The notes beneath the pieces were generated by a model. The model was not told the origin of the DNA and ran no database searches. It saw only the letters and a program-made list of their open reading frames with translations. 64,000 nt of DNA. It comes from a virus. Positions within the stretch are counted from its first letter, which is position 1, and every line of letters begins with the position of its first letter. This document shows, in pieces, positions 22,641 to 28,290 of this stretch. Position numbers and translations under genes: made by a program. The DNA is taken from IMG/VR virus record IMGVR_UViG_3300021961_000021, one strand, 5' to 3'.

Positions 22641-23534
22641 TTAAGAATTCGTAGAACGCATTTTAGCATAAGAAAAAACTTTGCTTGGAATGTTTACCCC
22701 GAGTGCTTTTTCAAAACCTTGGAATCCAGGAGCAGAGTTCGCTTCACAGATTTTATACCCATCTGGGTGAAAAAGCAAATCGACACCAGCAATGTCAAGA
22801 TCCAAAGTGTTTGCTACTCGGATGGAAAGCATTTCCAATTCTTCATCTAGTGGGTATTCAGTGCCTTCTCCACCACGGGAGATGTTTGCCTTGAATGATC
22901 CATCGGTACTCTGGCGAAGCATAGCACCAACGACCCGCCCACCAATAACGATAACGCGAAGATCACGTCCCTCCGAATGCTGTACATACTCTTGCACGAT
23001 CATACTGTTCTTGTAGTCTAGCGAAGAAATCAATTCTGACAAGTCCTCAAATTTCTTGGCATCCTCACACAAGTAGACCCCAGCACCATAAGATCCAGTC
23101 ACAACTTTAATAACGCAGGGGAATCCAACGTTTTTTGCGACTAAATCCGACTTGCAAGGAAAACGAGTGAGCATTGTCTTGGGGATAGGAAGACCTGCCT
23201 GTGCCAAAATCTGATTTGCATACATCTTGTCTTTAGATGCAATTATCGAATCAGAATTTGGAAGAGTAGGAACATTCAATCGTTCAAATTGTCTGAGAAC
23301 AGAGAGATTAAAATGCCCAGTACCACTACCAGTACGAGCAAGTACAATGTCAGGGAGACTGACAATATCATTGCGAAAGCGAATGGATTTACGGTCATCT
23401 CTTGATACGATTAGATCGATTTCATCGGAATAAACAACTTCAAAATCTATATTATCGACTTGTGCTTCTTCACGAAATCTCGTCATCTCATAAGAATCGG
23501 CACCCCTACGATTACCGAGCATCCAAATTTTCAT
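22641..23534 (-). CDS. rimK: RimK-family ATP-grasp alpha-L-glutamate ligase
   Basis: DKMYANQILAQAGLPIPKT, VIKVVTGSYGAGV, QEYV..GRDLRVIVIGG, FKANISRGG, GVDLL, CEANSAPGF. Confidence 0.9.
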   Translation of the reverse strand: MKIWMLGNRRGADSYEMTRFREEAQVDNIDFEVVYSDEIDLIVSRDDRKSIRFRNDIVSLPDIVLARTGSGTGHFNLSVLRQFERLNVPTLPNSDSIIASKDKMYANQILAQAGLPIPKTMLTRFPCKSDLVAKNVGFPCVIKVVTGSYGAGVYLCEDAKKFEDLSELISSLDYKNSMIVQEYVQHSEGRDLRVIVIGGRVVGAMLRQSTDGSFKANISRGGEGTEYPLDEELEMLSIRVANTLDLDIAGVDLLFHPDGYKICEANSAPGFQGFEKALGVNIPSKVFSYAKMRSTNS

Positions 23535-23553
23535 ATTTTCGCCAAAATAAAAG

Positions 23554-23625
23554 TGGGAAATGGTGGATTTGAACCACCGACCTCACGATTATCAGTCGTG
23601 TGCTCTACCCCTAAGCTAATTTCCC
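23554..23625 (-). tRNA. trnI: tRNA-Ile(GAT)
   Basis: Cloverleaf GGGAAAT...CTGATAA...GGTTCAAATCC; CCA not encoded. Confidence 0.92.
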
Positions 23626-23673
23626 AATGGGGAGGGGAAGCACTTCTCTATCCACCGAGCGTTACTTCCCCAG

Positions 23674-23746
23674 TGGAGAATAGCGGACTCGAACCGCTGA
23701 CATCCTGCTTGCAAAGCAGGCGCTCTACCAACTGAGCTAATTCCCC
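23674..23746 (-). tRNA. trnA: tRNA-Ala(TGC)
   Basis: Cloverleaf, TTTGCAA loop, G3:U70 pair. Confidence 0.95.
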
Positions 23747-23885
23747 TGGCGGCCCTTTTGTTAAAGGGGTAGAGCCGAACCCCTGTCGGGACTAGAGTGT
23801 GGACCCCTCTTCCCTTACGACGCTACGGACGACACCCGTAGTAGAAGTTGATCTCCTTCTATGCTATCTGCATAACGAGTATCAA
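23747..23885 (-). ncRNA. candidate structured RNA between tRNA-Thr and tRNA-Ala (four hairpins, H-type pseudoknot, 3' GCCA)
   Basis: Stems read by eye: TATGC/GCATA, TAGAAG/CTTCTA, CTACGG/CCGTAG, GGGA-AGAG/CTCT-TCCC, AGGGGT/ACCCCT with GGCTCT/AGGGCC. Confidence 0.55.
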
Positions 23886-23959
23886 AGCCCACGGTCGGAC
23901 TTGAACCGACGACCTACGGTTTACAAAACCGTTGCTCTATCCAGCTGAGCTACGGAGGC
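23886..23959 (-). tRNA. trnT: tRNA-Thr(TGT)
   Basis: Cloverleaf, TTTGTAA loop. Confidence 0.95.
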
Positions 23960-24140
23960 GTTCTTCTTTGGACAACTTGAAGTATAAAGTATAATACCGT
24001 TTCTTCATTTCGTCAATAGTATTCATATCTTCCTCAAATCCTAAGTATTTAAGAAATGAATATGATCCTTCCAATTCACTTAGAAGTCGGCATACGTTTA
24101 TGGATGATAATTCGTGACCACCAAAAATGTATTTATTCAA
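23937..24140 (-). CDS. hypothetical protein; stop lies inside tRNA-Thr
   Basis: ORF track. Confidence 0.65.
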   Translation of the reverse strand: MNKYIFGGHELSSINVCRLLSELEGSYSFLKYLGFEEDMNTIDEMKKRYYTLYFKLSKEERLRSSAG

Positions 24141-27827: not shown

Positions 27828-27899
27828 TGGGAGATACTGGGATCGAACCAGTGACTTATTGCTTGTAAGGCAATCGCTCTACCGCTGAGCTAATCTCCC
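27828..27899 (-). tRNA. trnV: tRNA-Val(TAC)
   Basis: Cloverleaf, CTTACAA loop. Confidence 0.95.
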
Positions 27900-28165
27900 G
27901 AATGTAAGATGCGATGGCAATTAGAACAAAGGCATACACATTTCTCAATCTCTTCGACTATACGCTGTGTAGCATAACCGTTTCTGACTAATTCAGATAC
28001 ACCTTTGTCCTTGGTAGAAGGATCGCTATGGTGAAAGTCCATAGCAGCAGGATGAAAGAAACCACACTTTACACAGGGAGTCATTTTACTCAGCATATAC
28101 TCCTTGTTTCGTGCTCTGCGTTTAGCAGAAGCTTCTTTATCCCTGATCTTTCTATCTGTTGCCAT
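27890..28165 (-). CDS. small HNH endonuclease
   Basis: CVKC...DFHH..P...CVCLCSNCHRILH. Confidence 0.85.
   Translation of the reverse strand: MATDRKIRDKEASAKRRARNKEYMLSKMTPCVKCGFFHPAAMDFHHSDPSTKDKGVSELVRNGYATQRIVEEIEKCVCLCSNCHRILHSGD

Positions 28166-28215: not shown

Positions 28216-28290
<75 letters not shown>

Follow-up and report, generated by a model that had tools for sequence, protein, structure and literature searches.

A conserved structured RNA was found in the tRNA cluster of a viral DNA of 64,000 nucleotides (nt) (IMG/VR record IMGVR_UViG_3300021961_000021), the whole of which is hereafter called the window and whose source virus is a T4-like cyanomyovirus. On the minus strand, a 139-nt spacer (23885..23747) separates tRNA-Thr from tRNA-Ala, and its 3' part is a 67-nt module, termed the core (23747..23813, minus strand), which consists of a hairpin arm, a linker, a putative H-type pseudoknot, and a terminal GCCA. 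The core is a real, conserved, and new RNA family. Purifying selection on the RNA fold is shown, at the level of the alignment, by compensatory changes in two helices and by loops that stay invariant in at least nine divergent lineages. Whether the family is best described as tRNA-sized, tRNA-like RNAs carried in the tRNA arrays of T4-like cyanophages (Kyanoviridae and uncultured relatives) is an evenly balanced judgement, and we would give an even chance to the reading that we favour, in which the core is processed into a mimic of the tRNA acceptor arm that engages a factor recognizing tRNA ends.

An initial annotation of the spacer had proposed that it folds almost entirely into a pseudoknotted RNA ending in CCA. 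The observation of structured RNA in the spacer was confirmed, and all complementary segments named there were found on the minus strand between 23747 and 23885. The single-sequence fold of the full 139 nt was not significant on its own (z = −1.64), and the case for structure beyond chance is therefore carried by homologues. These were gathered by blastn and pattern scans, and a covariance model (R1) was built from 21 core variants. R1 identified only one core copy in the window (81.4 bits, E = 2e-23) and 55 full-length copies in the fetched loci (64–90 bits). The core occurred in 45 distinct contexts, comprising four cyanomyovirus isolates (S-RIM50, one S-RIM8 isolate (KX349286), S-SZBM1, and DSL-LC03) and viral or metagenome contigs from IMG/VR and JGI. 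The sources of these isolates were marine (Narragansett Bay), estuarine (Shenzhen Bay), and freshwater (Dishui Lake). The core length was constant at 67–71 nt, counted from the position 9 nt 5' of the hairpin loop through the CCA, and in the shortest forms the core occupied the whole gap between two tRNAs (67–73 nt), which is the size of a tRNA. In an alignment of 37 distinct homologous cores (A4), the proposed structure was 90.0% paired, compared to 75.5% in column shuffles, and none of the 500 shuffles reached the observed value. Sliding the pairing partners by one to three columns decreased core pairing to 37–56%. The homologue and covariation check suggested with the initial annotation thus returned a structured RNA that is conserved and covaries, has a putatively pseudoknotted 3' arm, and encodes GCCA without exception.

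The hairpin and the first helix of the pseudoknot (S1) are established on the evidence of the aligned homologues. In the hairpin arm (23785..23821, minus strand), the inner 4–5 base pairs (bp) and the GGGA/UCCC helix were found family-wide, and the outer GUC/GAC segment was lineage-specific. The GGGA-AGAG/CTCT-TCCC arm had been drawn from the window alone, and it gained the support of covariation in all nine pairs beside the loop, each of which showed compensatory double changes; RNAalifold independently predicted the inner 5 bp. The 7-nt hairpin loop GUCCACA (23798..23804, minus strand) follows the family consensus xUCCAxx, in which UCCA was invariant (alignments A2 and A4).

S1 (23765..23784, minus strand) pairs AGGGGU (23784..23779) with ACCCCU (23770..23765) and encloses loop L1 (UC, 23778..23777) and strand S2a (GGCUCU, 23776..23771). 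It was 94% paired, and the helix initially read as AGGGGT/ACCCCT is backed by double changes in four of its six pairs (GC to CG, GC to AU, CG to AU, and UA to AU) and by RNAalifold, which recovered S1 independently. Further downstream (23751..23764, minus strand), loop L3 (UUAACAAA, 23764..23757) is followed by strand S2b (AGGGCC, 23756..23751), the pairing partner of S2a. This second helix (S2) was 95% paired, with both strands near-invariant. Only changes from G-C to G-U and from C-G to U-G were seen, C to U changes on the 3' or 5' strand preserved wobble pairs, and there were no double changes. A scan in which S2a and S2b were left free gave no matches other than true copies, and S2 was identical in each of them. 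The GGCTCT/AGGGCC pairing of the initial annotation is therefore compatible with the family but, with no compensatory change, unproven, and the same grade applies to the closure of the pseudoknot as judged from these alignments. The geometry in the window (S1 of 6 bp, S2 of 6 bp, L1 of 2 nt, L2 of 0 nt, and L3 of 8 nt) and across the family (L1 of 2–3 nt, L2 of 0–1 nt, and an A-rich L3 of 8–11 nt) would make closure sterically ordinary. An alternative 3' hairpin (CCCUUU/AAAGGG), which belongs to the minimum free energy structure of the single sequence, was rejected, as it was not conserved in other lineages and was not predicted by RNAalifold.

The 3' end of the core is GCCA (23747..23750, minus strand), a G73-like discriminator followed by CCA, which abuts G1 of tRNA-Ala and was invariant in all core copies. 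A tRNA gene followed the core in all 45 distinct contexts and lay within 1 nt of GCCA in 44 of them. The gap between core and tRNA as called by ARAGORN was 0 in 37 contexts, +1 in six, and −1 in one; in the remaining context an odd tRNA-like gene that was not called by ARAGORN intervened. The downstream tRNA was Ala(UGC) in 20 contexts and Val(UAC) in another 20, the rest being Pro, Gly, Val(GAC), or the odd tRNA-like gene. The junction first noted in the window, with GCCA directly joined to G1 of tRNA-Ala, is thus exactly at the predicted RNase P exposure site in 44/45 contexts. RNase P leaves a 3'-OH on the leader, and a cut at the 5' end of the tRNA would give ...GGGCC-G-CCA-3'OH without trimming or CCA addition. 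CCA was not encoded in six of the seven tRNA genes of the window, including all three of the Thr-Ala-Ile cluster, so the encoded invariant CCA of the element is no by-product of array style here. The only CCA-encoding tRNA gene of the seven was tRNA-Asn (28216-28290; …GAGCA-G-CCA). In some freshwater-type arrays, CCA-encoding tRNAs were packed head to tail.

In the favoured reading, the element would be transcribed within a Thr-element-Ala-Ile precursor. Its 5' side would be set by 3' processing of the upstream tRNA-Thr, which has no encoded CCA and would thus be an RNase Z-type substrate, and its 3' end would be set by RNase P at G1 of the next tRNA, giving a released end of ...GGGCCGCCA-OH, that is, CCA-3'OH. 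S1 and S2 would then stack into a helix of 9–12 bp, ending in G-C, G-C, C-G, and U-G followed by an unpaired G-CCA, and this helix would copy the acceptor/T-arm minihelix of a tRNA. Such a stack has 12 bp in the window, the length of the tRNA acceptor plus T stem, and 9–11 bp in other lineages. The hairpin arm, with 7–12 bp and internal loops, would project from the opposite end, at the place of the anticodon/D arm. The released RNA might engage a protein or ribonucleoprotein that recognizes tRNA acceptor ends, acting as a mimic, competitor, or decoy during infection, with an aminoacyl-tRNA synthetase, the CCA-adding enzyme, EF-Tu, RNase P, and a tRNA-targeting host nuclease as candidate partners. 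In this scheme we infer the processing steps, the S2 pairing, the three-dimensional mimicry, and the partner.

Tryptophanyl-tRNA synthetase would be the first candidate among the synthetases, as it fits the UCCA loop and G73. The core hairpin loop resembles the tRNA-Trp anticodon loop CUCCAAA, and in the core variant L020 it is exactly CUCCAAA. True phage tRNA-Trp genes in related contigs likewise had the loop CUCCAAA and the 3' end GCCA. The UCCA loop and the G discriminator correspond to what are reported to be the two principal identity determinants in bacterial tRNA-Trp. The stronger proposal of a functional minimal tRNA-like RNA of a DNA phage, excised with its CCA end already in place and either aminoacylated (with tryptophan as the best guess) or serving as an acceptor-arm decoy that shields phage translation against a host factor directed at tRNA ends, appears unlikely. 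The presence of a second RNA positioned for release in the S-SZBM1 array, an abiF RNA described below, was counted in favour of the acceptor-arm mimic.

The same junction evidence would also suit an element that acts only in cis, a reading that we consider possible, if doubtful. Here the core would be a processing or stability element of the polycistronic tRNA transcript, its pseudoknot a self-folding leader that keeps adjacent tRNAs from misfolding, offers the following tRNA to RNase P, or stops exonucleases moving 3' to 5', and the excised piece would be functionless. The core is always inside tRNA arrays and always joined to a tRNA 5' end, the arrays contain many other structured spacers, and close relatives do without it; one contig (L265) has the pseudoknot alone between two tRNAs. 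However, the loop UCCA, S2a GGCU, L3 AACAAAA, and the 3' GCCA were invariant in the core, and L1 UUC nearly so, while the stems varied. A plain spacer needs no invariant UCCA, AACAAAA, or GCCA, and fixed loops amid drifting stems argue instead for sequence-specific recognition. Moreover, most tRNAs of the same arrays are processed without the element and have different leaders, and the element precedes five different tRNA types. Cyanobacterial RNase P is reportedly independent of the 3' CCA, which we also counted against a purely cis-acting role.

To place the core among known families, Rfam 15 was scanned over the whole 64-kb window at gathering scores, over positions 23500–24050 at E ≤ 10, and over five homologous loci at E ≤ 1. 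Only tRNAs were found in the window at the gathering score, and nothing overlapped the element at E ≤ 10 or its homologous copies at E ≤ 1. The manA motif (RF01745), which the initial annotation had offered as an alternative identity, is excluded by the lack of a match at all three levels. Riboswitch pseudoknots, small ribozymes, and tmRNA were excluded in the same way, as the scans gave no overlapping match. The wcaG motif (RF01761) did not match either. A true wcaG copy in DSL-LC03 (103.7 bits) has another consensus (GUUUC-stem-CUCUAAA-stem-GUGG), with which the core shares no motif. The core is like manA and wcaG in being an orphan structured RNA of the same virus group, and wcaG contains hairpin units of the pseudoknot type. 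A canonical tRNA was excluded, since RF00005 and ARAGORN called only the flanking tRNAs and neither a 5' acceptor strand nor a D arm is present in the element. A literature search found no paper describing the element; the csRNA catalogue PMC10690425 (10,006 candidates) lay outside the comparison.

By architecture, the pseudoknotted tRNA-like structures of plant viruses are the closest analogues. Like the turnip yellow mosaic virus type, the core has an encoded CCA at its predicted 3' end, would build an acceptor-like helix with an H-type pseudoknot instead of a 5' strand, and has an upstream hairpin arm with an anticodon-like loop. In contrast to the viral structure, the core is encoded by a DNA phage, would be excised from a tRNA precursor rather than forming the end of a genomic RNA, and has G rather than A as the discriminator. 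The resemblance to plant-virus structures suggested in the initial annotation therefore holds for the layout, which is like a pseudoknotted acceptor arm, but the elbow and a match to the family model are missing: the Tymo_tRNA-like model (RF00233) did not match the element and matched only true tRNAs (22 bits). Pseudoknotted plant-virus tRNA-like structures are RNase P substrates (PMC11143913). Bacterial RNase P also accepts pseudoknots with a 3' RCCA, cutting in loop 1 in an RCCA-dependent manner (Kosek et al. 2025, PMC12710915). That substrate is, like the proposed fold of the element, a small H-type pseudoknot ending in RCCA, but it is an artificial biotin aptamer that was combined with RNase P of the E. 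coli type.

Several observations weigh against the acceptor-arm mimic. The mimic might itself be a target of bacterial RNase P, with a cut in L1. No T-loop/D-loop elbow is present in the element, and since it also matches neither the tRNA nor the Tymo_tRNA-like model, an L-shape is not assured. As S2 shows no compensatory change, the pseudoknot rests on near-invariant complementary strands and wobble-compatible changes. In contig L265 the pseudoknot and GCCA are kept and the UCCA hairpin is gone. The similarity to tRNA-Trp also has its bounds. A decoding anticodon loop is expected to retain a purine at position 37; positions 6 and 7 of the core loop vary (A/C/U and A/U, respectively). The core as a replacement of tRNA-Trp was rejected, because true tRNA-Trp co-occurs in element-bearing arrays. 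Finally, the element is dispensable in nature: in other S-RIM8 isolates, Syn9, and S-SM1, tRNA-Thr and tRNA-Ala lie 3 nt apart with no element between them, and R1 gave no match in the Syn9 or S-SM1 loci.

By context, the closest analogues are RNAs C and D of phage T4. Phage tRNA clusters have contained unexplained non-tRNA RNAs since T4 species 1 and 2 were sequenced in the 1970s. These two species, rnaC (139 nt) and rnaD (119 nt), are non-tRNA RNAs that lie beside tRNA genes and on the same strand as these within the phage tRNA cluster, and the core has the same kind of location. Host enzymes of tRNA and RNA processing mature RNAs C and D from one shared precursor. The 3' end of rnaD is CACCA, and rnaC has a T-arm-like CCGGGUUCGAAUCCCGG. 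The T4 RNAs differ in lying at the cluster end, whereas the element is tRNA-sized (67 nt), putatively pseudoknotted, and abuts the next tRNA. Homology to rnaC or rnaD was rejected, as R1 found no match in T4 positions 68000–75000 (L243) at E ≤ 1.

The core offers a compact handle on the T4 problem, with 67 nt, strict invariants, an acceptor-like pseudoknot, and a CCA end predicted from RNase P. Natural presence/absence variants exist within S-RIM8, and cultured phage-host pairs are available for S-RIM50, S-SZBM1, and DSL-LC03. If the core is charged, or if it titrates a factor that binds tRNAs, DNA phages would join plant viruses as users of this type of tRNA mimicry, and tRNA arrays would act as cassettes that deliver RNAs with regulatory or anti-defence roles. 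Should the stronger tRNA-like proposal be true, pseudoknotted tRNA-like structures would be known for the first time from beyond RNA viruses, and the core would hint at what RNAs C and D of T4 do. A covariance model of the family would improve the annotation of cyanophage genomes.

The delivery of a released RNA could also serve a different end. We think it rather improbable that the core is an anti-defence RNA that neutralizes a host toxin or nuclease, for which tRNA processing would be only the route of delivery. It could then act in the manner of a type III antitoxin pseudoknot or a pseudo-ToxI, or as a decoy for a nuclease directed against the acceptor ends or anticodon loops of tRNAs. The pseudoknot-only unit of ~37 nt is the size of a type III antitoxin repeat, a bona fide abiF RNA occurs in the same S-SZBM1 array, likewise just 5' of a tRNA, and presence or absence among isolates of one phage species fits accessory cargo. 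Yet no Rfam antitoxin family matched the element, and it is single-copy rather than tandem. When 185,579 species-representative prokaryotic genomes (GTDB) were scanned with a strict pattern, no real copy was found and the only two hits were chance matches of 21–23 bits. On the same three grounds (no Rfam match, single copy, and no GTDB copy by the strict pattern), the type III antitoxin RNAs themselves (abiF RF03085 and relatives) were excluded as the identity of the core. The extreme conservation from marine to freshwater phages further speaks for a partner that is universal and against a toxin limited to particular strains. A host origin of the core was rejected because the strict-pattern genome scan gave chance matches only, although diverged host relatives could escape the pattern.

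In the S-RIM8 isolate KX349286, a 328-nt cassette composed of the core, an odd tRNA, and one further module is inserted between tRNA-Thr and tRNA-Ala. Because the flanking tRNA genes are 100% identical between phages, exchange of the cassette by recombination is the simplest explanation. A further reading makes the core a functionless remnant, either of a tRNA gene in decay or of recombination or homing, that persists because the conserved tRNA genes around it anchor recombination in the neighbourhood of genes for homing endonucleases. In its favour, the cassette is present in some phages and missing in others between the same identical pair of tRNA-Thr and tRNA-Ala genes, an HNH gene lies near the DSL-LC03 array, and an HNH-like open reading frame (ORF) lies between two window tRNA genes. 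In addition, S1 starts with the T-arm-like GGGGUUCG, and the 3' strand with GCCA resembles the 3' acceptor strand of a tRNA. However, decay would not be expected to leave a constant length of 67–71 nt and a tRNA abutment in 44/45 contexts, or covariation in two helices and invariant loops in at least nine divergent lineages, and we regard a functionless scar as very improbable. As history, a tRNA origin is possible; the beginning of S1 with GGGGUUCG, like a T arm, makes descent from the 3' three-quarters of a tRNA plausible.

Two endonuclease genes or candidates were observed near these arrays. An annotated HNH endonuclease gene lies directly upstream of the DSL-LC03 array. In the window, a 91-aa ORF (27890-28165, minus strand) occupies the space from tRNA-Asn to tRNA-Val and extends into the latter; with its CxxC ... 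CxxCH motifs it looks HNH-like by eye, and Pfam gave no match to it. Judged by its motifs and position, this ORF may be a small homing endonuclease in a tRNA region, like segB, which is contained in the T4 tRNA cluster, or the HNH gene of DSL-LC03.

The remainder of the 139-nt spacer is made of other modules. The initial annotation had treated the spacer as one unit, which did not hold, as it contains at least two independently occurring modules (a 38-nt hairpin and the 67-nt core) and a lineage-specific hairpin. On the 5' side of the core, the spacer of the window has another 72 nt. Their first part is module X (23848..23885, minus strand), a 38-nt rod hairpin with the loop AGAUA that starts directly after the tRNA-Thr discriminator. 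Its stems are an outer UUGAU-A-CUC / GAG-AUCAA and an inner UUAUGC/GCAUAG, and the same shape was predicted in the window (z = −3.97) and in S-SZBM1 (z = −4.4). Across eight contigs, module X was 95.5% paired with eight pairs changed on both sides, and none of the 500 shuffles was as good. It occurred without the core directly after tRNAs in S-SZBM1, DSL-LC03, and five other contigs. Of the stems initially placed in this part of the spacer, TATGC/GCATA is the inner stem of module X, and TAGAAG/CTTCTA was contradicted because its bases are used by the covarying outer stem of module X.

Between module X and the core lies the hairpin CUACGGG-UGUCG-UCCGUAG (23823..23841, minus strand; −8.3 kcal/mol, z = −1.2), which was confined to the window and the near-identical contigs L008–L010. 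The initially described CTACGG/CCGTAG stem thus does fold, but as it is found in this lineage only, there is no covariation evidence for it. The place before the core is taken in S-RIM50 and S-RIM8 by another module, GCGCUGGAAAGAUAAACCAGAAUGCCG, with a CUGG/CCAG hairpin, which elsewhere follows tRNA-Ala or the odd tRNA (L001:681-707; L002:688-714; L006:1177-1203; L008 and L009 after tRNA-Ala; L012). With modules occurring independently of each other, the spacer is a string of shuffled RNA modules, of which the core is the unit that bears the main point of the initial annotation. Module X and the next hairpin are separate cargo sharing the spacer in this lineage.

Several further RNA genes were observed in core-bearing arrays. 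The odd tRNA-like gene often adjoins the core (L002:793-866; L005 ~765-838; L006 ~918-990; also L019, L026, and L049) and is absent from the window. It has normal acceptor, D, and T arms, and its 'anticodon' arm is a 3-bp covarying stem (CCC/GGG, GUG/CAC, GUA/UAC). This stem together with the conserved 5-nt loop GACAA/GAUAA means that the gene cannot decode, and ARAGORN either overlooks it or reports it as tRNA-???. Downstream of the odd tRNA, S-RIM8 KX349286 (L002:867-1002) and S-SZBM1 (L006:990-1052) have in common a conserved stretch, ...AGAGGG(U/C)AAG(C/U)CUCUGUUAUAUCC...GAGGUAUAU(U/C)ACGCUU.... The abiF RNA (RF03085) of S-SZBM1 (L006:1053-1089) scored 55.7 bits against a gathering score of 37 and is separated by 4 nt from the tRNA-Ala downstream of it. 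This antitoxin-type RNA has no accompanying toxin gene, is located in the same array as the core, and is positioned for release by RNase P. Permuted two-piece tmRNA genes were also present inside core-bearing arrays (L265:1-240, L020:2462-2692, and L267:6265-6582; Rfam cyano_tmRNA and tmRNA_permuted; ARAGORN tmRNA*).

The tRNA cluster of the window matches Synechococcus phages S-RIM8, S-RIM50, Syn9, and others, and outside the tRNA genes no isolate is close at the DNA level. The neighbours of the spacer are tRNA-Thr(UGU) upstream (23886..23959, minus strand; CCA not encoded) and tRNA-Ala(UGC) downstream (23673..23746, minus strand; G1 at 23746), followed by tRNA-Ile (23553..23625, minus strand), all three called by both ARAGORN and Rfam. 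A sigma-70-like promoter match, TTGACG-17-TATACT (23988..24016, minus strand), agrees with 10 of 12 consensus positions and lies ~28 nt upstream of tRNA-Thr; as a consensus match only, it is a possible start of the Thr-element-Ala-Ile transcript. The spacer contains no minus-strand ORF of at least 40 aa, and the sole ORF overlapping it (49 aa) is on the plus strand and runs antisense into tRNA-Thr. The neighbouring genes (RimK-like ATP-grasp, DUF7212, CpeT, and gp5) gave no tRNA-related clue.

In existing records of these phages the region is unannotated. In S-SM1, whose array lacks the element, two GenBank coding sequences annotated as 'hypothetical protein' (SSM1_028 and SSM1_030; L003 529-927) lie over tRNA-Thr and tRNA-Ala and are probably spurious. 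The next spacer of the window, the 47 nt between tRNA-Ala and tRNA-Ile (23626-23672, minus strand), had no copy in any other fetched locus and is a strong hairpin, GGGGAAGUA...UGCUUCCCC, with a predicted folding energy of −20.2 kcal/mol (z = −3.2).

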